Source: an uncultured Chloroflexia bacterium (GTDB taxonomy: Bacteria; Chloroflexota; Limnocylindria; QHBO01). Taken from it: a DNA stretch of 64,000 nucleotides. The DNA is taken from NCBI GenBank assembly GCA_963825525.1, contig CAWGTN010000002.1:96001-160000 (forward strand), written 5' to 3'. The notes under the pieces are model-generated. The model did not search any database. It was given only the letters and a program-made list of their open reading frames with translations, and had not been told where the DNA came from. Shown one piece after another: positions 18,591 to 33,846 of this stretch (its first letter is position 1; each line of letters starts with the position of its first letter). Both the position numbers and the translations under genes were made by a program.

Positions 18591-19082
18591 ATGCACGCCG
18601 ACAACGTCCGCTGGCTGTTCGACTACGACCGTTGGGCCACCCGCGGGATACTGACCGCACTCGACGGGGTCGACGCCGCCCTGTGGGAGCAGCCGAACGC
18701 CGTTGGCGAACGCGGACTGGGAGGTATCCTCGTGCACCACCTGGGTGCATCGCAGCGCTGGCGTGTCGGCCTACAGAGCCGCGGCGCGGACGAGGGGCCC
18801 GCGCCGGAAAACGAACCGTTGCCGGCGGTGCGCGAGCTGATCGATCGCTGGGAGGCGGAGTGGAGCGAGGTCGATGCCTGGCTGCCGACCCTCACCGACG
18901 AGTTCGTCGCGTTCGTGTTCGACGGGGTTCCCGTGTGGCAGATGCTCGTACATGTCGTCAATCACGGCACGCAGCATCGGGCCGAAGCCGCCGCCCTGCT
19001 CACCGCAGACGGTCGATCGCCGGGTGAGCTGGACATGATCAACTACGCGGAGGATCTGGCCGGTCGAGAGGTCCCCGGATGA
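18591..19082 (+). CDS. DinB family protein
   Basis: FDYDRWAT...ILVHHL...HVVNHGTQHRAE. Confidence 0.92.
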   Translation: MHADNVRWLFDYDRWATRGILTALDGVDAALWEQPNAVGERGLGGILVHHLGASQRWRVGLQSRGADEGPAPENEPLPAVRELIDRWEAEWSEVDAWLPTLTDEFVAFVFDGVPVWQMLVHVVNHGTQHRAEAAALLTADGRSPGELDMINYAEDLAGREVPG

Positions 19083-20020
19083 ACGTCATGGAGTGGCTGC
19101 TGGACTCCGATCCATCAATTCGCTGGCAGGTGATGCAGGCCCTGGAGGACGCCCCCTCAGACGTGGTTGATACCGAGCGGGCAAAGGTCGCGACGACCGG
19201 CTGGGGACAGGAGCTGCTGGCCCGCCAGGCGCCCGACGGTCATTGGGGAGGCCAGGCCGATGCCACCTCCTGGACCACGAGCCGCGAGTGGCATTGCCTC
19301 GAGTCTCTCGCGTGGCTGCGATCGATGGGTCTCGACCCGCACAGTCCCCAGGCGCGCAGGGCAACCGACCTGGTCCGCGACAACGTGACGTGGAAATGGT
19401 GGGACGACCATCCGTTCTTCGTCGGGGAAGTCGAGCCGTGCATCAACGGGCGCGTGGTCGCGACCGGCGCCTACTTCGGCCAGGACGTTGGGGGCCTCGT
19501 CGATCGGCTGCTGGGCGAGCAGATGGCTGATGGCGGCTGGAACTGCGAACAGGAGAACGGAGCGACGGTTGGCTCGTTCGGCACCACGATCAACGTGCTG
19601 GAGGGCCTGCTCGAGCACGATCGGGCGACCGGTGGCACCCCCGAGCTGGCGGTCGCCCAGGAGCGCGGACGCGAGTACCTGCTCGAGCGAGGCCTGATGC
19701 GTCGCCGCACCACCGGGGAGATCATCGATCCTGCGTTCACCCGATTCTCGTTCCCGAACGGATGGCACTACGACGTCCTTCGGGCCCTCGACTACCTCCG
19801 TGCCGCCGATGTCGAGCCGGACGATCGGCTCCACGAGGCCATCGAGCTTGTCGAGTCGAAACGGGACGCCGACGGACGTTGGCCGCTCGAGAATCCCCAC
19901 CCAGAGCAGCTCGAGATCGAGATGGGGGAACGCGAAGGTCAGCCAAGCCGATGGAACACGCTGCGCGCGATGCGTGTCCTGCGCTGGTATCGGCAGCTGT
20001 CGAGCGGCGCCGAGCACTGA
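19079..20020 (+). CDS. prenyltransferase/squalene-cyclase repeat (alpha/alpha barrel) protein
   Basis: QW-type repeats QAPDGHW, QMADGGWNC and KRDADGRW; C-terminal SRWNTLRA. Confidence 0.8.
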   Translation: MNVMEWLLDSDPSIRWQVMQALEDAPSDVVDTERAKVATTGWGQELLARQAPDGHWGGQADATSWTTSREWHCLESLAWLRSMGLDPHSPQARRATDLVRDNVTWKWWDDHPFFVGEVEPCINGRVVATGAYFGQDVGGLVDRLLGEQMADGGWNCEQENGATVGSFGTTINVLEGLLEHDRATGGTPELAVAQERGREYLLERGLMRRRTTGEIIDPAFTRFSFPNGWHYDVLRALDYLRAADVEPDDRLHEAIELVESKRDADGRWPLENPHPEQLEIEMGEREGQPSRWNTLRAMRVLRWYRQLSSGAEH

Positions 20021-23873: not shown

Positions 23874-24041
23874 CGGTTGCAGTCTCCAGCATGCGGTTCA
23901 AGAGTTGGACGCCGTCAGAGCCTGGTACTCATCGGCGCGTCTACACTGCCCGCCTGCACACCCGAGCCCGGATGAGGCTGGCAGAATCCGGAGGGAACAT
24001 CATCAGCATCGGCGGACTGTAGGCAAAGGAGGGACGCCACG

Positions 24042-24242
24042 ATGACCTGGGAGCAGGCGGAAGAGACCGCACGGCCGGTCCTGAAGTGCCCGCTATGCGG
24101 CGGCACCGAGTTCGACCAGGAGCAGGGTCGGATGGACAGCCGATGGGGCATCACCAGCCACAAGCTCGTCCTTCAGATCTGCCGGACGTGCGGCCTGGTC
24201 CTCCAGTTCTCGGCCGGCCGCGGGATCTTCGACTTCGACTGA
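24042..24242 (+). CDS. small zinc-ribbon protein
   Basis: CPLCGG...CRTCG pair; AGGAGG RBS. Confidence 0.75.
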   Translation: MTWEQAEETARPVLKCPLCGGTEFDQEQGRMDSRWGITSHKLVLQICRTCGLVLQFSAGRGIFDFD

Positions 24243-24244
24243 GC

Positions 24245-24841
24245 GTGTTCGATCGGCTTCCGGGACCGATGCGCCGATGGCTGTACGCCGGTGGCACCCG
24301 CCAGGATCGGTTGCGTGATCCCGATGCGGTCGTTGCCGCCCTCCGGCTGCGTCCCGGGATGGTGGTTGCCGACCTCGGCCCGGGCTACGGCCACTTCACG
24401 CTCCGGATGAGCCGCGCCGTGGCGCCCGACGGGGTCGTCTACGCGCTCGACGCGAGCCGGACCACCCTCGACGAGCTTCGGCAGGCGGCCGAAGAACGAG
24501 ATGTCACCACGATGAAGTTCGTCGAGATTCCGCGTGACCGCCTGGTCGTGCCTGAGCCGGTCGACCTGCTCTTCGTCTCAGCCACGTACCACCACCTGCC
24601 CGACCCGGCAAGGTACTTCACCGAAGCGCGAGCGCTCCTGAAGCCCCGCGGGCGCCTCGTCATCCTTGAAGCGCGGCGCGAGGGCGTGCTCGCCCAGTGG
24701 CGTGGGCGGCATGCGACATCGCCCCGCCGCGTCGAGCGTGAGATGCGCGAGGCGGGGTACCGGCTCGTCGACACCCACGCTCTCGTGCCGGGCCACCTGT
24801 TCGCGGAGTTCACCGCCTCGCCGCCCGGGGATCGCAGCTAG
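24245..24841 (+). CDS. class I SAM-dependent methyltransferase
   Basis: VADLGPGYG, VYALD, YHHL and LKPRGRLVILE. Confidence 0.88.
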   Translation: MFDRLPGPMRRWLYAGGTRQDRLRDPDAVVAALRLRPGMVVADLGPGYGHFTLRMSRAVAPDGVVYALDASRTTLDELRQAAEERDVTTMKFVEIPRDRLVVPEPVDLLFVSATYHHLPDPARYFTEARALLKPRGRLVILEARREGVLAQWRGRHATSPRRVEREMREAGYRLVDTHALVPGHLFAEFTASPPGDRS

Positions 24842-27165
24842 GGGGACGGCGTCGGGCTGGGGGAGGGGCTCGGGGTGGGGCTGCTCGTCGGCGTCGAGGT
24901 CGGCCGGCTGGTCGGCGTCGCGGTGGACGCCGCTGAACCCGACGGCGACGGCGACGACGAGGAGGATGGTGTCGGCTGCGTCGTCGGGCTCGACGTTCCG
25001 GCCGGCGTCCCGCTCGGGCTCGGCGTCAGCGTCGGCCCCGGCGTTCCCGACGCACCGACGGACGACGACGCGGAGGGTGACGGCGTGACCTGCGGCGTGA
25101 CCCCCAGGATGGCGATGATCTCCGCCTTGTAGTCCTCGAACTGTGCGATGACATCGGCGAGGGGCAGCGTGGGGATGGTCTCGGCGAAGGCCGCGATCTC
25201 CTCCCACAGATCGGCGAGCGATAGCTGCTGCTCCTGATCGGGCAGGGAGTCGATCGTCACCACCAGCTGGCTCGCGACGGCTGCCGTGATGCACTCGAAG
25301 CACTCGTAGTTCACCGCCGCGCTCAGGTTCTGCGGGACGATGACGTCGGCGTGCCCGACGATGACCACGACCTGGAAGGCCACCGCGACGGTGACGCAGT
25401 CGCTGCAGCTCGCGAACGCGTACGCCTCGTTCGTGTTGAGCACCGGGTCCTCGCCGGTGACCCAGACCATTGCCACGGCCACGTCGTACTGGGCCGTGCC
25501 GTCGCTCGTGTTGACGGAGATCGCCTGGTTGTCTCCCGGGTCGGGCGGCAGCGGCTCGTTGAACGGGAAGACCCATGCGGGCTCGGCGGTACCACCGGGA
25601 TCGGCTCCGTCGCCTGCGCCATCCGACTCGCGCGGAACGAGGACCAGCGCCATCTGTGGCTCGTCCTCGGTCGGCCGCGGGCCGCCGTCCGACATGAGCG
25701 TCAGCACCTCGCCACCTCGGGCGGTGGTCGTTGGCGGCCGATCGAAGCCTGCTGCGCCCAGGGGAACATTGGCGACGCTGAAGATCGTCCCATCCTCGAA
25801 CGGGCTCACCGGGCGATAGCGCTCGGCGCCTGGCCACCACGCGAACGCGAGGGCCACGACGGCGGCGAGTACGAGCGCTCCGGCACCCGTGCGACGCACG
25901 GGCCGGCCCTCGGTCCGGCGCCACAGGCTGCGCACGATGCCGTAGACCACCCGGCCCAGGACGAATCCGATCGCCAGGATCGGGAGCGTCACGACCGCCA
26001 TCGCGAGAACGGCGCCGGCGGCATCGATGAAGGCTCCAGCCGCCAGATGCGCGCCCGCCCGCCCCCATTCGCGGCCGATGCTGTCGAGGGCAGTGCCGAT
26101 GATGCGCGGCGCCGCCAACACCATGGCGAACAGTGAGAACGCGAGCAGGGGCACCACGACCAGCACCCACAGGGTGACGATGATCCGAACCCACCACTTG
26201 AGTTGCGCGACGCGCGGATCGTTCCAGCGGCCCGGCCAGAAGGAGGTCAGGATCGGCCATATCCGCGAGAAGAGGTCGGGCACGCCGGTGACGTCGGCGA
26301 GGACGTGGTACCCGTCGAACCGCACGAGCGGGGCAAGCTGGCGGATCATCTGAAGGATCTGGGCGGCGATGATCAGGAGCAGCGCATCCCAGCCGGTGAC
26401 CCACCAGGCCGCGGCGATGGCGACGGTGACGATCGCGTTGAAGTACAGGCCACCGAGGTCGGTGCGCAGGCGGGCTGCCCGACCCAGGCGATAGGTATCG
26501 GTCACATCGGTGTAGAAGGCTGGCCAGAGCAGGAACCAGCCGGCTCCCATCGCGCCCGGTTGGGCTCCGCCACGTCGGGCCGCGGCCGCATGGCCGAACT
26601 CGTGGAAGCCCGCCGAGAGGATCGTGATGACGAGGACGAGTGCCAGAAGGTCCGGCTTGGCGAACGCCTGGTACGTCGCTGACGCCAGGCCCTGCTCGGC
26701 AAGGAGCCACCAGGCGATCCATCCAAACAGGGCGATCAGCGGGATCCAGGCCAGGGGATGGAACAGGACCGTGAACGGGGCGGTGATCCGACGCGTGAGG
26801 GCTGGATCGGTCACCGCGAACCGCAGCTTGAGCCCGGTCAGCGGATTGGACCGCTTCAGCTCCGGGATCGATCCATCTGCGCCGAGCAGCAAGCCGCGCG
26901 GCCGCAGCTGCTTCTCGGCGAGCGTCGCGACATCGGAGGCCGAGATCCGGCGGCCAGTGCGCTCGGACACGAGCTCCGCGATCTCCTCGTGGCCCCGCTG
27001 GCCGTCAACCGCATCGAGGACGGCGTACAGCAGGGGCGTCAGCTGGAGGGTCTGGCCGTCCTGCCGGCGGACCAGGGCGGGCGGTACGCGGTACCCCGAC
27101 CCCTCCATCTCGCCGATGAGCTCGAGGCCGTCCGGGCGCACCGGGACGTCAGCGACCATCGCCAT
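24838..27165 (-). CDS. PqqD/RRE-like + M50 (site-2) metalloprotease + extracellular CxxC beta-repeat fusion protein
   Basis: N-terminal strands plus LTPLLYAVLDAVDGQRGHEEIAELV (PqqD-like wHTH); FHEFGH, AFYTDVT and QLAPLVRFDGY M50 motifs; multiple TMs; repeats NEAYAFASCSDCVTVAVAFQ / NLSAAVNYECFECITAAVASQ; Pro/Ser/Thr tail. Confidence 0.85.
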   Translation of the reverse strand: MAMVADVPVRPDGLELIGEMEGSGYRVPPALVRRQDGQTLQLTPLLYAVLDAVDGQRGHEEIAELVSERTGRRISASDVATLAEKQLRPRGLLLGADGSIPELKRSNPLTGLKLRFAVTDPALTRRITAPFTVLFHPLAWIPLIALFGWIAWWLLAEQGLASATYQAFAKPDLLALVLVITILSAGFHEFGHAAAARRGGAQPGAMGAGWFLLWPAFYTDVTDTYRLGRAARLRTDLGGLYFNAIVTVAIAAAWWVTGWDALLLIIAAQILQMIRQLAPLVRFDGYHVLADVTGVPDLFSRIWPILTSFWPGRWNDPRVAQLKWWVRIIVTLWVLVVVPLLAFSLFAMVLAAPRIIGTALDSIGREWGRAGAHLAAGAFIDAAGAVLAMAVVTLPILAIGFVLGRVVYGIVRSLWRRTEGRPVRRTGAGALVLAAVVALAFAWWPGAERYRPVSPFEDGTIFSVANVPLGAAGFDRPPTTTARGGEVLTLMSDGGPRPTEDEPQMALVLVPRESDGAGDGADPGGTAEPAWVFPFNEPLPPDPGDNQAISVNTSDGTAQYDVAVAMVWVTGEDPVLNTNEAYAFASCSDCVTVAVAFQVVVIVGHADVIVPQNLSAAVNYECFECITAAVASQLVVTIDSLPDQEQQLSLADLWEEIAAFAETIPTLPLADVIAQFEDYKAEIIAILGVTPQVTPSPSASSSVGASGTPGPTLTPSPSGTPAGTSSPTTQPTPSSSSSPSPSGSAASTATPTSRPTSTPTSSPTPSPSPSPTPSP

Positions 27166-27237
27166 GCGGCTCCTTCACGAGGCACGAATGCGTGCCGCGC
27201 AGGGTCACCCGAACCCCACGCGGCGCCGTTGTCCGAG

Positions 27238-27963
27238 CTACTGGCTGATCTCGGAGTCCTGGTCCACGACTGCCGAGCTGTCGCCGTCGATCGACTGGTC
27301 GATGATCGCGTCCTGCACCGAGACGGCGGTCGCGCTCGACCCGATCGACCCGACGTTGGCGGCCACGGCTGCATCGATCGGGGCGGCCACGTTGGCGTTG
27401 GCCGCCACCGCACCCGCGATCGGCGCGGTCAGGTCCGCATCGGCCGCCAGGTTGACGTCGATGTTGAGCAGGTCGCCGCTCAGCATGTCGCCGGCGTCGA
27501 CACCGGTGACCGAGTCTCCGGCAACTGCGCCCGCAGCACCGGCCGCGTCGTCGACCGCGCCGCTGCCATCGGCGAGATCGGCGGTTCCGGCATCCGCATC
27601 GGCGCCGGCGTCGACACTGTCGGACGCCTGGTCAATGTCGCTGGCCTGTGTCGCGGCCGCCGAGGCATCGCCCACGATGCCCTGCGTGATCATCACGCCC
27701 TGGTCGCTCAGCGCCTGGGCGGTGGAGCCGGCGGAGAGGACATTCGCGCCCACTGCGGCATCGATCGGGGCGGCGACATTGGCGTTCGCGGCGACCGCCA
27801 GGTCGACCGGTGCCGCGAGATCGAGCGCAATGTCTGCGTCGACCTGCAGGTCGAGGATCGAGACGACTTCCTTGTCCGGAAGCGCGGTGACCTCTTCGGC
27901 GGCCAGCTCGTCCGCGGTCAGGCCCTTGGTCGGGTCGGTATCGTGAGAAGCGTTCGTGCTCAT
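27238..27963 (-). CDS. 241-aa leader-bearing protein with two 77-aa beta-rich repeats (candidate M50 substrate / fibre subunit)
   Basis: AAGGGGA RBS before ATG 27963; acidic leader LTADELAAEEVTALPDKEVVS; repeats at aa 36-112 and 165-241 share AVAANANVAAPIDAAV. Confidence 0.85.
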   Translation of the reverse strand: MSTNASHDTDPTKGLTADELAAEEVTALPDKEVVSILDLQVDADIALDLAAPVDLAVAANANVAAPIDAAVGANVLSAGSTAQALSDQGVMITQGIVGDASAAATQASDIDQASDSVDAGADADAGTADLADGSGAVDDAAGAAGAVAGDSVTGVDAGDMLSGDLLNIDVNLAADADLTAPIAGAVAANANVAAPIDAAVAANVGSIGSSATAVSVQDAIIDQSIDGDSSAVVDQDSEISQ

Positions 27964-28206
27964 TGTTTCCCCTTGTCTGCTCACCCCGAGTGCGGGGTCG
28001 GCATCGCTGGAAGCACGATGCGTGCCGAAATGCCGGGCCGGTGCACGGCGCGTGCCCGAGTGGGCGCTTCGTGGTGCGCCCGGTCGACAGAGACGGACCG
28101 GCACCGGAGTTGCGGGCGCTTCGGACATTGCCGCGGTAGGAGTCGCAGATATCCCACCCCTCTCGGTGCGCCGAAACAGTTGGTTTCGCTGGCGCATCTG
28201 TGACAC

Positions 28207-28752
28207 ATGAACCCATCGACCGATGTCGTTCGACGGGACCGCCCAGCGTCGGGTGCTGACCTGATCCGACGAGCGGGGTCCGGTGACCGCGATGCATTGG
28301 CAGCGCTGGTGGATGCGCACCACGCCGACATGCTGCGCGTCAGCTTCGTCGTCTGCGGGGACCGCGACATCGCCCGTGACGCTGTGCAATCCGCCTGGCT
28401 GCGAGCTGCGACGCGGTTGGGCTCTGTCCGAGATCACACCCGCGTGCGCGCTTGGCTGTGCTCGGTGGCCGCCAATGAGGCCCGGATGGCCGTCCGTCGG
28501 CGGCGACCGACTGTCCCGGTTTCGGCTCTGGACGACCACGTCGCGGAGCGCGGTATGCCCACGGCAGCCGCGTTGGACCTCGTCGCGACGCTGGAGAGCC
28601 TCGACATTCAGGATCGTCAGCTTCTCGCGCTCCGATACATCGCCGGCTTCAGCTCGACGGAGCTGGCGGACCACTTCGCCATCACCCCGGCTGGCGTTCG
28701 CAGCCGCCTGAAGCGCCTGCTCGATCGGCTACGGAAGGAGCTCGACCGATGA
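28207..28752 (+). CDS. ECF sigma-70 factor
   Basis: Region 2 ARDAVQSAWLRA...RAWLCSVAANEAR; region 4 LLALRY..GFSSTELA..GVRSRLKR. Confidence 0.9.
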   Translation: MNPSTDVVRRDRPASGADLIRRAGSGDRDALAALVDAHHADMLRVSFVVCGDRDIARDAVQSAWLRAATRLGSVRDHTRVRAWLCSVAANEARMAVRRRRPTVPVSALDDHVAERGMPTAAALDLVATLESLDIQDRQLLALRYIAGFSSTELADHFAITPAGVRSRLKRLLDRLRKELDR

Positions 28753-29888
28753 CCGACCGATCACAACACCCCGACCCGTTTGAGGAGGCACTGGCCGCCT
28801 CGCTGGAGCGATACACCGCCGATGTCGACGTCACCGGTGACGCGTATGCAATGGCAGATGCGATGCTCGGGGTGCGCCGACAGCACCGCTTCCGCATCGG
28901 CCTGGGTGCGGTCGCGGGCGGGCTCGCCACGGCGGTACTGGCCGTGATCGCAATCGGTGCGCTTGCGGAGCCGCAACCCCAGGTGGGACCCGCTTCGACG
29001 GAGTCGCCCCGAGCGACCGAGTCGCTGCAGCCGACGGAGGGTTTGATTCCGTCGCCGGAGCCGAGCGCCGAGACGCTCCCTGGTGTCGAGGCACCCGAAG
29101 CCTGCGGGTTCCCGGAGGGCACTGGGCTCTCGTACGCGGGCCGCTCGACGACGGCCAGACGCGGCGTCCAGGAGGTCGTGGGGGACAAGTGGAGCTTCGA
29201 GCCCGCCGACATCTACATCACCAGCGAGAAACAGGAACAGGCCAATGGGATCCGCGGGCGGCTGGTCTGCGCAATCTTCGTCAATGCGGACTTCGTCGAG
29301 GTCACCATGCATCCCGAAGATGGCGGGCGGTTCTCCCCCGCCCCCGAGTCGTCTGTCTTCGAGGCGACATGCTCACCGTCCCCGACTCCCGCACCACGGT
29401 CCGGCGACGAGCCGTACGTCGTCACTGCGACGGAACTCTGGGAGGCGGGCCAGTGCGGAGACGCGCTCGCCAGGTACGGCGGAGCCGATCTGACCCTCGT
29501 GGCTTACCCGTCGGGCCTGAACGGGGTCGTGGATCCGTGCCCGTCCCTGGAGCCGCCCTGGTTCCAAGACTGTTCGGTTGATGCGGTGGTCTTCCTTCGT
29601 GCGCCGGACGCACCTCGAGACGAACTTGGTCTGGGACCCACGGCCGCGGCTGTCATCCATCCGGACCTTGGCGCCCTGCCGGACATCCGGGACGACCTTG
29701 GCCTGGAGCCCGGAGCGACGACGCTCATGCGGTTCACCGCCCACTTCGACGACCCGGCCGCGTCCGAGTGCCGGTACGAGGAATGGAACGGGGGTCTAGG
29801 ACCGTCACCGACTCCCGGTGAGGTCGTTGAGGAGTGTCGCAGTACGCTCGTCATCACGGCGTTCGAACCTGTCGAGCCGTGCCGATGA
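28749..29888 (+). CDS. putative anti-sigma factor: single TM with Cys-containing extracytoplasmic domains
   Basis: Start overlaps the ECF stop (ATGA); short cytoplasmic N-terminus, TM, P/S/T linker, C-terminal AHFDDPAASEC...ECRSTLVIT. Confidence 0.7.
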   Translation: MTDRSQHPDPFEEALAASLERYTADVDVTGDAYAMADAMLGVRRQHRFRIGLGAVAGGLATAVLAVIAIGALAEPQPQVGPASTESPRATESLQPTEGLIPSPEPSAETLPGVEAPEACGFPEGTGLSYAGRSTTARRGVQEVVGDKWSFEPADIYITSEKQEQANGIRGRLVCAIFVNADFVEVTMHPEDGGRFSPAPESSVFEATCSPSPTPAPRSGDEPYVVTATELWEAGQCGDALARYGGADLTLVAYPSGLNGVVDPCPSLEPPWFQDCSVDAVVFLRAPDAPRDELGLGPTAAAVIHPDLGALPDIRDDLGLEPGATTLMRFTAHFDDPAASECRYEEWNGGLGPSPTPGEVVEECRSTLVITAFEPVEPCR

Positions 29889-29917
29889 GTTTATCTGTGG
29901 CGGCGGTCCAAACGGAC

Positions 29918-30559
29918 ATGAGCAAGGACACGCGCATACATCTCAGTTTCACTGGACGGCTACGTTGCGGGTCCCAACGAGACCATGGAGAATCCGCTCG
30001 GCGAGAACGGTGAGCGGCTGCACGACTGGGTGACCGAGCTGCGGTCCTGGCGCGAGCTCCAGGGCATGGAGGGCGGCGTAGAGAACGTCAGCAACGCCGT
30101 GGTGACCGAGGACAACGCCGACATCGGCGCCGAGATCATGGGTCGCGGCAAGTTCGGTCCGCCGAGCCGCGGCGCGTGGGGGCCGGACCCGTGGCAGGGA
30201 TGGTGGGGTGACGATCCGCCGTTCCACAAGCCGGTCTTCGTCCTCACGCACCACGAGCGGGAGCCGCTCACACTCTCGGACACGACCTACACCTTCGTGA
30301 CCGATGGCATCGAGGCGGCCCTCGACCGAGCGCGAGCCGCGGCGGGGGAGAAGGACGTCCTGATCGGCGGGGGTGCGAAGACGATCAACCAGTTCCTGGC
30401 CGCCGGTCTCGTGGACCAGCTGGGCCTCCACGTCGTGCCGATCATCCTCGGTGGCGGTGCCCGCCTCTTCGACGGTGTCGGGCCGGAGGTCGGGCTCAGC
30501 TCGTCCGGGTCATCGATGCCCCAGGCGTGACACACCTCACATACCGCCTTAAGAAGTAG
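29918..30559 (+). CDS. dihydrofolate reductase-like (RibD C-terminal) protein, apparent frameshifts near 29930 and 30497
   Basis: AYISVSLDGYVAGPN upstream of the ORF, IMGRG, PVFVLTH, IGGGA; C-terminal LVRVIDAPGVTHLTYRL lies in another frame. Confidence 0.85.
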
Positions 30560-30716
30560 GGCGATGCCGCGCACCATTGAGAGCAATCGCACCCCGACCA
30601 CGATCGGACGGCATAAGGGAGTTGCCGAGCGGGCATCCTTTCGTACATCTCGCATCGAGCTCGGGAAATGCAATAGCCTTGGTACTCGATTACGGCCTAA
30701 AGAGAGGGGAATTGCC

Positions 30717-31602
30717 ATGACCCGGATCCGCTCTGTGATGCCCGCGGTAGTTGTGGGGTTGATCCTCGTCGGTTGCGGACGAGTTGCCTCGTCAGCCGCA
30801 CCGTCGACGGTGCCATCGGTGGTCGACGGATCGTCCGGTCCCACCTCCTCGCCGACCCTGGCGCCGATGACCGAGGCGCCCCGCCCGACTGAGACGCCGA
30901 TGCCCAAGGTTCAGCTCGGCTATGGCGCACGCGTCGAGATCGACGACGACGCCGATCTGCACATGAGACCCGCCACGGCGTCAAGCGTCATCGGCTCCGT
31001 GCATGCCGGCCCGGTCGAAATCGAGATCATGGACGACGACACGGTGAGTCCGATGCTCGGACCGGTCGAGGCCGATGGCCTGATCTGGTATCCGGTTCGA
31101 TCGAGCGAGGGCCCCTTCGGCTGGCTGGGGCTCGACGAATCGACGTGGGAACCGATGGCGCCCGACTGCCCGACCTCCACTAGCCCGAGCGTCGAGGAGT
31201 TCCTGAGCATGGCGCCGGCGGAGCGTGTCGCCTGCTTCGGCGACCAACCAATGTCATTCACGGCTGCCGTCGCGCTGTCCGGCCTCGGCGGCTTGAGCCT
31301 GGCCAGCTTCGAGCCGGACTGGTTGGCCTCGCGGCTCACCACGAACATGCGGGTGTCGTCGGCATCGGGAGTCACGCTGAGCGCGCCGCTACACCTGGCA
31401 CCCGGCCTGTCGCTGGCCCGATCTCCCTCCGGGATCGGCGAACCCTTACGCGCTCCTGGACCTCGTGGTCCACGTCGCTGACCCTGCGGCGGAAGATTGC
31501 TTGATCACCGCGCCAGGTGCTTCGGGCCCGGAGGATCACGGAGCAACCGTTGCCTACTGCCGCGCGCAGATCGTCGCGACCGAGTTCGCATTCGCGGAGT
31601 AG
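30717..31602 (+). CDS. lipoprotein with SH3-like domain and C-terminal HxxDPAAxxC domain, apparent frameshift near 31430-31445
   Basis: Lipobox LILVGC; LHMRPATASSVIG...GPVEADGLIWYPVR; continuation HVADPAAEDC...YCRAQIVATEFAFAE* in a shifted frame. Confidence 0.72.
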
Positions 31603-32738: not shown

Positions 32739-33251
32739 CTACTCCGGGATGGTGTTCGGCTCGGGCTCGGCCGGGATTGGCCCGTTCTCCAGGCGCGCCG
32801 CCTCACGAACGGTGTTGTAGAAGATCTGCACCGGGCCGATCAGGGCCGCCAGCATCAGGAACTCGAGATATCCGAGGCTGGCGACGATGAGATTCCCGAG
32901 CGTGACGACTGTCAGAACGGTCAGGCCGGCGATGATGGTCCAGCGCTCGCGCTCGCGCGGCCAGGCCGGCCCCGGTCGCGCCTGAAGGTATCCTCGGATA
33001 TACGGAATCACGAGAAGAATGGTTCCGACGCGCACCGTCAACGCCAGGTTCTCGCCCGTGATCGTGTATGCCGCCACGGTGCCAAAGCCTGCGAGGGTGA
33101 GGGCGAATCCCAGGAAGACGATGCTGGTGATCCGGTAGGCCGCAATCGGAGAATGTGCCAGCGGGCGACGGTCGAGCGCCGAGATCAGGCCCGCGAAGCC
33201 TGCCAGGGAGACGCCGAGGCCACCCATTGCCATGAAGAACGATTCATGCAC
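32739..33251 (-). CDS. hypothetical membrane protein
   Basis: About five TM segments, N-terminal GVSLAGFAGL. Confidence 0.7.
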   Translation of the reverse strand: MHESFFMAMGGLGVSLAGFAGLISALDRRPLAHSPIAAYRITSIVFLGFALTLAGFGTVAAYTITGENLALTVRVGTILLVIPYIRGYLQARPGPAWPRERERWTIIAGLTVLTVVTLGNLIVASLGYLEFLMLAALIGPVQIFYNTVREAARLENGPIPAEPEPNTIPE

Positions 33252-33330
33252 GCCGCCACGATACGTCGTGATCAGTCGGGAGTCACGAGTTTCGCCATCG
33301 TCAGGCGTGACAAGCGAACTGGAGTGACCG

Positions 33331-33846
33331 ATGCCATCCAACGATCCGAAGACGACCCTCGACCCTCGCTTCAGCAGCGAGGACGCGACGCCAACCCCGT
33401 GGTCGACCGCTCGCGATCAGCTGCGAGAGGCGATGAGCTATCAGCTGACGACGATCCGGGCGGACGGCCGCCCGCATCAGACGACCATCGCGGGCATCTG
33501 GCTCGATGACGCCTTCTCGTTCTCGACCAGCAGTGGCGAGCAGAAGGCGCGCAACCTGGCGGCCGGCAACCACCATGTCATCGTCACCGCGGGCAACTCC
33601 GGCTGGGATGGCCTGGACGTGATTCTCGAGGGTGAGGCGGTGGAGGTGACCGATGCGGACCGGCTCGGCCGCCTGGTCGATGCCTACCGCACGAAGTACG
33701 ACGACTTCTTCGAGTTCCGCCTTGAAGACGGCCGGCTGGTTGCCCCCGGCGCGATCGGGGACAACCTCGTGTTCGACGTCCGTCCGCGGAAGGCCTTCGG
33801 CTTCGCGAAGGGCGATGTGTTCAGCCAGACCCGCTGGCAGTTCTGA
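33331..33846 (+). CDS. pyridoxamine 5'-phosphate oxidase-like protein
   Basis: LTTIRADGRPH...QKARNL...FSQTRWQF. Confidence 0.9.
   Translation: MPSNDPKTTLDPRFSSEDATPTPWSTARDQLREAMSYQLTTIRADGRPHQTTIAGIWLDDAFSFSTSSGEQKARNLAAGNHHVIVTAGNSGWDGLDVILEGEAVEVTDADRLGRLVDAYRTKYDDFFEFRLEDGRLVAPGAIGDNLVFDVRPRKAFGFAKGDVFSQTRWQF

Follow-up and report, generated by a model that had tools for sequence, protein, structure and literature searches.

How a bacterial cell might process a repetitive, acidic protein that bears no recognizable secretion signal, and where the product would then act, is the question raised by a gene pair in a 64,000-nucleotide stretch of DNA (the window; positions 96,001 to 160,000 of contig CAWGTN010000002.1, assembly GCA_963825525.1) from an uncultured Chloroflexia bacterium of the Limnocylindria. 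One gene encodes a 241-amino-acid (aa) protein, P0001, with an acidic leader like those on peptides that are synthesized ribosomally and modified post-translationally (RiPPs); the other encodes P0002, a 775-aa protein in which a RiPP recognition element (RRE) domain is fused to a site-2 protease of family M50. The reading to which we lean, with confidence somewhat above even, is that the pair belongs to a three-part, leader-guided processing cassette, kin to the RRE-fused site-2 proteases of RiPP pathways and without tailoring enzymes. Within it, processing of P0001 by P0002 by way of the leader is considered likely.

The precursor gene was translated from an open reading frame (ORF) at 27238..27963 and the protease gene from an ORF at 24838..27165, both on the minus strand, as are all parts of the two genes given below. 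The region has about 70% G+C. On reading the sequence, a Shine–Dalgarno-like AAGGGGA was seen 5 nucleotides (nt) ahead of the precursor ATG, and the protease gene follows downstream after a gap of 72 nt. The window's own genome holds a single copy of each gene.

The leader of P0001 (aa 1–29; 27877..27963), LTADELAAEEVTALPDKEVVS, is acidic and ends in a conserved ..TALP. No hydrophobic stretch and no Sec-type signal was found in aa 1–35, in agreement with the original prediction, made from the sequence alone, that the protein has a RiPP-like leader in place of a Sec signal. In an alignment of 48 homologues no other part of the precursor was as conserved as the leader, with L28, P29, D30 and K31 invariant and the invariance running on into V33, S35, L37, D38 and L39. 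The whole protein consists of 25% Ala and 15% Asp, contains Lys only twice and lacks Arg, Cys and aromatic residues; downstream of Pro29, Asp and Glu total 35 and Lys and Arg one. No Pfam family matched P0001 at E ≤ 0.01. A likeness of the word SILDLQ to the ILELQ-like word of class III lanthipeptides was also considered and is regarded as coincidence: the Q occurs only in Limnocylindria-like sequences, most others having N, and there is no Ser/Cys core.

Self-alignment showed that the best ungapped offset of P0001 is 129 residues, which places core repeat 1 (aa 36–112; 27628..27858) on core repeat 2 (aa 165–241; 27241..27471) with 43 of 77 residues and 141 of 231 nt identical. The two ungapped 77-aa repeats of the original prediction were thus recovered, not as contiguous units but separated by a variable 52-aa linker rich in Gly, Ala and Asp (aa 113–164; 27472..27627). 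Since 22 of the 43 conserved codons differ synonymously, the duplication is old and under selection. Each repeat contains the predicted identical core, the 16-mer AVAANANVAAPIDAAV (aa 56–71 and 185–200; 7 of 48 nt differ). Repeat 1 begins with an alternating, amphipathic stretch of 41 residues (aa 37–77) and continues into a hairpin region with Q-x5-Q motifs; repeat 2 has its amphipathic stretch at aa 166–206 and ends in the C-terminal Q. Reading of the sequence located the paired Q-x5-Q motifs, 18 residues apart as had been described, at Q88/Q94/Q106/Q112 and Q217/Q223/Q235/Q241; six of these eight Gln are invariant in the 48 homologues, and the other two, Q112 and Q241, show conservation of 90% or more. 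The linker is hypervariable in length and sequence among homologues of 214–460 aa, in which both cores are conserved. When repeat 2 was aligned with the leader plus repeat 1, the end of the linker (..GDMLSGD) proved to be a degenerate copy of the leader end. In a 460-aa homologue from Nocardioides (locus L029, 3720–5099), the linker consists of about 25 imperfect repeats of the type GTVVGTLD.ATGNVL.

P0002 was modelled with AlphaFold2 (AF2) from 52 homologues, giving a mean predicted local distance difference test score (pLDDT) of 76.4 and a predicted template modelling score (pTM) of 0.65. The N-terminal part (aa 1–105; 26851..27165) was modelled as three strands (15–19, 30–33 and 39–42) followed by three helices (44–52, 59–70 and 76–87), with a pLDDT of about 90 over aa 40–100; this is the three-stranded sheet and three-helix winged-helix fold of RRE domains. 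Structural comparison with VIA-align showed that this unit, at aa 4–98, matches leader-bound lasso-peptide B1 proteins with Z 8.3–8.7 and a root-mean-square deviation (rmsd) of 2.9–3.0 over 81–84 of 84–88 residues, the best being 6jx3_B (Z 8.7, rmsd 2.9, 82 of 85 residues), with TbiB1 (5v1u, 5v1v) at Z 8.3–8.4. The RRE parts of LynD, TruD, ThcOx, MibB, TigE and TglI gave Z 5.6–8.1 (6.7–7.6 for the first four). The PqqD-like N-terminus read from the sequence was in this way borne out. A winged-helix domain from outside RiPP pathways, 8hkr_B, scored alike (Z 9.0); because such domains score similarly, the comparison speaks for the fold, and it is homology together with leader conservation that suggests binding of the cognate leader by this predicted RRE domain.

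The next part of P0002 (aa 111–294; 26284..26835) is an M50 core. Translation located the HEFGH and RFDG motifs of the original prediction at aa 188–192 (26590–26604) and 282–285 (26311–26322), and H188, E189, H192, D284 and G285 are invariant in the 52 homologues. The core has HExxH in a membrane helix, a downstream Asp ligand in ..DG, and the site-2 protease fold, with VIA-align scores of Z 7.8 to SpoIVFB, 7.5–8.1 to the Methanocaldococcus jannaschii site-2 protease (S2P; 3b4r) and 6.6–7.6 to RseP orthologues. NCBIfam model NF041824, for the daptide intramembrane metalloprotease, matched P0002 with E 9e-31 over aa 30–298, the RRE part included. The core is followed by additional long membrane helices (aa 317–448; 25822..26217), which were delimited by hydropathy, charge count and the AF2 model (helices 324–375, 379–417 and 422–442). 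An Arg-rich loop (aa 395–425, 7 Lys/Arg) that is probably cytoplasmic precedes the last hydrophobic helix (about aa 426–448), and the positive-inside rule applied to loop and helix places the C-terminal 300 residues outside the cell. These residues contain a beta-rich domain (aa 530–690; 25096..25578; pLDDT 84–95), in which AF2 placed two hairpins with CxxC turns (C587/C590 and C622/C625) and two helices, and a tail rich in Pro, Thr and Ser (aa 697–775; 24841..25077) that was modelled as disordered (pLDDT about 33).

A Pfam scan and a PDB sequence search with P0002 both returned nothing, and no Foldseek row at E ≤ 0.001 was obtained with the full 775-aa model. Foldseek rows to SufBD, FapC and ice-binding proteins (probability 0.02–0.15, rmsd 14–17) were dropped, none of them being among the 50 VIA-align rows listed; the FapC row (probability 0.15, rmsd 14.1) was accordingly not counted as evidence.

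The original prediction had named a lack of synteny between homologues of the two genes as a ground for abandoning it. Among 19 loci taken from species-representative genomes of two phyla, 17 have the protease as the next gene downstream of the precursor, and the other two end at a contig edge. All-against-all clustering of the 16 loci longer than 9 kb, the window included, showed that the precursor, the protease and their shadow ORFs are the only genes common to all; any other gene is common to five at most, all closely related. More than 3600 homologues of P0001 were found at E ≤ 1e-3 among 8000 scored candidates, and more than 3300 of P0002 at E ≤ 1e-5, mostly in soil-type metagenomes. Named carriers are Chloroflexota (Limnocylindria) and the Actinomycetota Nocardioides, Terrabacter, Arthrobacter, Intrasporangium, Marmoricola and Microthrixaceae; cultured ones include Terrabacter lapilli, several Nocardioides, Arthrobacter sp. 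Leaf69 and Intrasporangium flavum. The long-form core is 51–87% identical between the two phyla. Genome by genome, P0001 matched 7 of 151 genomes of its class, four strongly (G120 among them) and three weakly, and a profile of the core matched 12 of 401 genomes of the phylum and 18 of 201 of the order that holds T. lapilli. The name "peptidoglycan-binding protein" given by the source to two homologues of P0001 has no Pfam or NCBIfam support and was set aside.

The three weak matches in the class proved to be small precursors. They led to loci in which two or three ORFs of 71–102 aa stand in tandem ahead of a protease homologue 37–44% identical to P0002, and overall such precursors have 67–106 aa and form tandem sets of 2–4 upstream of homologous proteases, which also match NF041824 (E 4e-30 to 5e-29). 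A small precursor consists of an acidic leader ending in ..AAELPDREAMSL and a core of the form NANIAxPVNAAVAANVLSDGSxAxAxAxQxxPIxQ, and aligns with both repeats of P0001. S35, N62, A64, P66, A70, N74, S77, A84, Q88, I92 and Q94 are invariant in small and long forms, and for L28 and P29 conservation is 90% or higher across the small precursors as well. Four features set the long form apart from these: one more amphipathic unit separates leader and core, the hairpin gains a second strand, there is a linker that varies in length, and a second core follows with a degenerate leader end but no Leu-Pro. By this alignment P0001 is an enlarged, duplicated member of a very large family of small precursors with cores of about 40 residues, which is new here and lay outside the original prediction. 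A search with one small precursor returned 7127 proteins of 43–139 aa at E ≤ 1e-3; among the 120 matches listed, those with a name are called "hypothetical protein", bar one evidently unrelated enzyme name. Pfam and NCBIfam gave no significant match to the small precursors, and a Strep_pep match to one of them (E 0.075) was treated as noise. In some small precursors (L006/L010, 1038–1674; L007, 1306–1617) the acidic leader is preceded by an N-terminal CxxC...CxxC-like zinc-ribbon word (..RSVCADCGKEL..) with weak family matches (E 0.05–0.1). In four of the eight small-form loci an extra short ORF, which may be a precursor or a shadow frame, lies upstream of the first small precursor (L062, 8316–8546; L063, 8546–8797; L064, 11350–11538; L065, 7816–8043).

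Cassettes of this type also occur on two Streptomyces plasmids (L066, NZ_CP107797.1, 5271–8486; L067, NZ_CP102333.1, 3515–7593), where all genes are annotated as hypothetical and the protease homologues have 36–43% identity. There the same leader word ..ELP(D/E/G)R(E/A).. precedes quite different cores: the plasmid small ORFs carry the words ELLPGREAL and ELLPERAVL ahead of cores that are unrelated, of which one contains Cys and a Gly-rich stretch. Variable cargo behind a constant leader is the hallmark of leader-guided processing systems.

The small-precursor clusters also revealed a third component that the original prediction did not contain. In these clusters the C-terminal domain of P0002 is a separate protein of about 200–260 aa, encoded directly downstream of the protease in seven of eight loci (six small-precursor loci of 12–20 kb and one plasmid, L066). 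The free proteins match the C-terminal domain by blastp with E 5e-10 to 4e-16, both Cys hairpins included, and tblastn agrees; the four Cys of the P0002 domain are all invariant among homologues. In the three loci read (L060, L062 and L063) the free protein has a signal-peptide-like N-terminus and is apparently secreted, and in L060 and L063 it was also seen to end in a Pro/Thr/Ser-rich tail. Because the domain is free-standing in the small-precursor clusters, P0002 is taken to be the fused product of two genes found apart elsewhere, and the system to have three parts. At E ≤ 1e-3 the Cys-domain family comprises 1831 representatives of clusters made at 50% identity, some fused and some free. 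No sequence relative of it turned up in Pfam, NCBIfam or the PDB; a PDB search with its profile returned only two designed coiled-coil chains (E 0.26 and 2.2). That the domain is always there, irrespective of the core, suggests a place in the machinery rather than a role as core-specific template.

Given this conserved machinery, the nature of the cargo was considered. Every second residue is Ala, Val, Ile or Leu at 20 of 21 positions in aa 37–77 and at 19 of 21 in aa 166–206, and the opposite face holds all Asp, Asn and Gln (10 and 9) together with both Pro of each stretch. Over the alignment, the period-2 hydrophobicity power of the amphipathic parts exceeded that of 1000 of 1000 shuffles, period 3.6 was not significant there (p about 0.5), and the C-terminal part of each repeat showed a period of about 6 (p 0.001–0.004) that comes from the Gln spacing. 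A 41-residue alternating pattern fits an interface sheet or a membrane-spanning hairpin, not a helix; the sequence argues for beta structure, and the pattern is as compatible with a pore-forming hairpin as with a fibre. A PDB sequence search with the precursor profile returned nothing.

The mechanism that we propose would begin with binding of the acidic P0001 leader (..EL..E..TALPDKEVVS..) by the cytoplasmic RRE domain of P0002. The M50 site, formed by HEFGH and the Asp of RFDG, would then cut the leader off, probably right after Pro29; this position is suggested by analogy with the daptide precursor MpaA, in which the Pro of the leader motif ELExMEAP is position −1. One or two products may be released, given that repeat 2 has no Leu-Pro. 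The unmodified product would go to the cell exterior, a destination suggested by the obligatory outside domain or partner protein; that the product acts outside the cell we hold to be an even call. There the four-Cys domain of the protease would act on or with the product. Each repeat would consist of an amphipathic beta segment, with an Ala/Val/Leu/Ile face opposite an Asp/Asn face, and then a Gln-laddered hairpin, and the most likely use of the cargo would be to self-assemble as an amphipathic beta sheet into a coat or fibre at the cell surface. Export and extracellular assembly of the cargo are steps that we infer. A structural role for the product, as sheet or fibre, in preference to a membrane-active or antimicrobial one, is a tentative proposal held at well below even confidence; it is favoured by high conservation between phyla, by the anionic character and by the lack of immunity genes. 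A bolder version, to which we give only a small chance, is a Sec-independent surface assembly of soil Chloroflexota and Actinomycetota built from RiPP parts, in which the protease would recognize the RiPP-type leader on unmodified peptides or entire proteins, cut it off, translocate the cargo through its own extra helices and pass it to the Cys-knuckle domain; the 41-residue segments stacked into an acidic and hydrophobic sheet or fibre around the cell would then, with the same small chance, be a functional analogue of chaplins and curli with an unrelated secretion logic.

Several results weigh against the proposed mechanism. Since the cassette has no exporter, a 212-residue acidic protein would have to be secreted without a known route. 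The AF2 monomer of P0001, built from 48 homologues, was poor (mean pLDDT 50.9, pTM 0.19); in each repeat it has a low-confidence helix over the Ala/Asn-rich stretch, which is the amphipathic part, and a hairpin over the Gln-rich part with pLDDT up to about 69; of the two, the sequence with its period-2 signal tells more than the model. The absence of Leu-Pro from repeat 2 also counts against it. In Streptomyces the Cys domain accompanies very different cores, which speaks against a core-specific nucleator. Pfam PqqD matched only 4 of the 52 P0002 homologues (best E 0.12), and Peptidase_M50 matched 31 (best E 0.007) but not P0002 itself. The NF041824 score was 107.3 bits against a curated cut-off of 300, and NF058609, for the YydH/LiaK epipeptide protease, matched with E 3e-7 and 30 bits against a cut-off of 225; because these scores lie far below the cut-offs, P0002 is a relative of the characterized families and not a member.

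The closest named system is the daptide pathway, from which RRE-fused site-2 proteases have been known until now and in which such an enzyme (MpaP/DapP) trims a chemically tailored short peptide. P0002 has the same domain order, RRE then M50, with homology over both; P0001 has an acidic leader with an E-L...-(A/L)-P word, after whose Pro daptides are cleaved; and the small-form relatives have several precursors per cluster, as daptide clusters do. However, P0002 at 107 bits is a homologue and not an equivalog, and no set of oxidative decarboxylase (DapB/C), aminotransferase, methyltransferase and ATP-binding cassette (ABC) genes is conserved in the 16 long-form or eight small-form loci, whereas daptide clusters encode ABC transporters. 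P0001 ends in ..EISQ, and daptides end in an invariant Thr; its core is anionic and of predicted beta type, and that of daptides is a hydrophobic helix whose two ends are cationic. Further differences are the extracytoplasmic Cys domain or partner and the 241-aa two-repeat cargo.

Removal of a RiPP leader by a membrane M50 enzyme also links the cassette to the epipeptide proteases YydH, EpeP and LiaK, from which it differs in its weak NF058609 match and in having no radical S-adenosylmethionine (SAM) epimerase. EpeP is thought both to cleave and to export (PMC10885120), and the cassette described here would need the same dual role. RseP, SpoIVFB and the M. jannaschii S2P share the catalytic core fold (Z 6.6–8.1), HExxH and ..DG with P0002; they cleave regulators in their transmembrane segments and employ PDZ or CBS domains, whereas P0002 has a cytoplasmic RRE domain and an outside Cys-knuckle beta domain.

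For the cargo, the original prediction had seen in the Q/N-periodic repeats a hallmark of curli and Fap subunits. The likeness stands in composition: like curli CsgA/CsgB, Fap and chaplins, P0001 has imperfect repeats rich in Ala, Val, Asn, Gln, Ser and Gly with conserved Gln spacing, a strongly amphipathic beta pattern and, possibly, a dedicated extracellular helper. It does not extend to a Sec signal, a secretion channel or a Pfam family. In contrast to curli and Fap, the only conserved neighbour is the protease and there is no outer-membrane channel, which would be unneeded in these monoderm-type lineages; in contrast to chaplins, P0001 has neither a signal sequence nor a match to the Pfam chaplin or curlin family. 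The cassette is not a curli, Fap or chaplin system by any testable criterion.

The genes around the cassette were examined by a Pfam scan of the ORFs in 19–33 kb of the window. As had been stated, no radical SAM, YcaO, LanM or ABC gene was found there, and no lanthipeptide, ATP-grasp-type peptide ligase or aminotransferase gene recurs with the cassette. Matched neighbours encode LysR, two glyoxalases, AraC, an NmrA-like protein, an alpha/beta hydrolase, a SAM-dependent methyltransferase, an extracytoplasmic function (ECF) sigma factor, RibD_C and PNPOx. No match was obtained for five ORFs, among them 19079–20020 (+, 313 aa), 30564–31481 (+, 305 aa) and 32739–33341 (−, 200 aa). The methyltransferase gene (24086–24841, +) is convergent with the protease gene, whose stop codon it overlaps by 4 nt; among the loci compared it is retained only in the closest relative, L012, and was rejected as a tailoring enzyme on this ground. 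The ECF sigma gene (28207–28752, +) lies divergently upstream of the precursor gene and adjoins a gene for a 379-aa single-pass membrane protein without family match (28749–29888, +). An ECF sigma gene also stands beside the cassette in L060, with a zf-HC2 anti-sigma factor, and on plasmid L066. Searching 24000–30000 against Rfam gave no match at E ≤ 1, and a promoter and terminator scan of 24500–28400 found nothing.

Four other explanations were weighed against leader-guided production of a surface protein. A live rival, if an unlikely one, is that the cassette yields antimicrobial or membrane-active peptides that lose their leader but are not otherwise modified, much as class II bacteriocins or beta-hairpin pore formers; with the same limited chance, the 41-residue stretch would be a transmembrane hairpin that oligomerizes to a pore, the duplicated form in the window being a two-headed version. 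The stem loops of beta-pore-forming toxins are strictly alternating stretches of about 40 residues, a length that the P0001 segment matches. Tandem sets of 2–4 similar small precursors with an adjoining leader peptidase are of a kind typical for bacteriocin and RiPP loci, the leader word is retained between subfamilies whose cores diverge widely, and the distribution among genomes is patchy (12 of 401 in the phylum sample and 18 of 201 in the actinobacterial order). Daptides, which have the closest named protease, are membrane-active hemolysins acting in combination. However, the cores are anionic with no Lys or Arg, and the six Asp on the polar face of repeat 1 would give a pore a dense negative lining; no immunity-like membrane protein or ABC exporter is conserved in the 16 long-form or eight small-form loci; and 51–87% identity of the long-form core across two phyla is above that usual for arms-race peptides. 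A more conventional RiPP, whose core is modified before cleavage by tailoring enzymes encoded elsewhere in the genome, is improbable. The homology of the RRE-protease is to RiPP pathways, and a SAM methyltransferase gene is convergent with the protease gene here and is also present in L012. Past this closest relative no enzyme gene is conserved in the 16 long-form or the eight small-form loci, and among 43 proteins around six small-precursor loci Pfam showed no recurring radical SAM, YcaO, lanthipeptide, ATP-grasp ligase, aminotransferase or ABC gene. The core also has no Cys, ends in Gln and not in the invariant Thr of daptides, and at 212 residues in two domains is far above the size of known RiPP cores.

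The two remaining explanations start from the ECF sigma gene. M50 proteases process peptide pheromones in Firmicutes, and the products might be secreted signals that are freed by an Eep-like activity of P0002 and sensed by the Cys domain or by the neighbouring sigma system, which is found here, in L060 and on plasmid L066. This explanation has a very small chance: tblastn with the sigma factors of the window and L060 found none in loci L011–L029, and two conserved 77-residue cores with a 41-residue amphipathic segment exceed what a signal needs. Anti-sigma factors are the classical substrates of site-2 proteases, and P0002 might instead serve the adjacent sigma/anti-sigma pair, the 241-aa protein being unrelated; the sigma gene and the single-pass membrane protein are 243 bp away on the other strand. 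The protease is, however, linked to a precursor in every locus with enough DNA, and it has a peptide-leader-binding fold and no PDZ domain. With these queries a sigma gene was detected in four places only: here, in L060, on plasmid L066, and in L062, where it lies about 6 kb from the cassette. Regulated proteolysis of an adjacent anti-sigma factor was rejected, the sigma pair not being conserved with the cassette, and its residual probability is negligible. Taken together, the evidence supports leader-guided processing well; fibre or amyloid formation is a candidate function, and a pore or bacteriocin role is a live rival to it.

In the literature searched, the cassette, the precursor family, the Cys domain and a tailoring-free RRE-protease cassette are undescribed, although supplements to the daptide papers may list related RRE-peptidase groups. 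The system presents the recognition and cleavage module of those pathways without tailoring enzymes and always with an extracytoplasmic Cys domain, and its cargo family has more than 7000 small and more than 3600 long homologues, the listed ones without an informative name or Pfam domain. If the proposed processing is true, RiPP-type leader recognition would extend to unmodified, protein-sized substrates, an abundant class of "hypothetical" peptides of soil bacteria would be explained, and the cassette would point either to a new kind of surface sheet or fibre or to a new family of anionic, beta-type membrane-active peptides.

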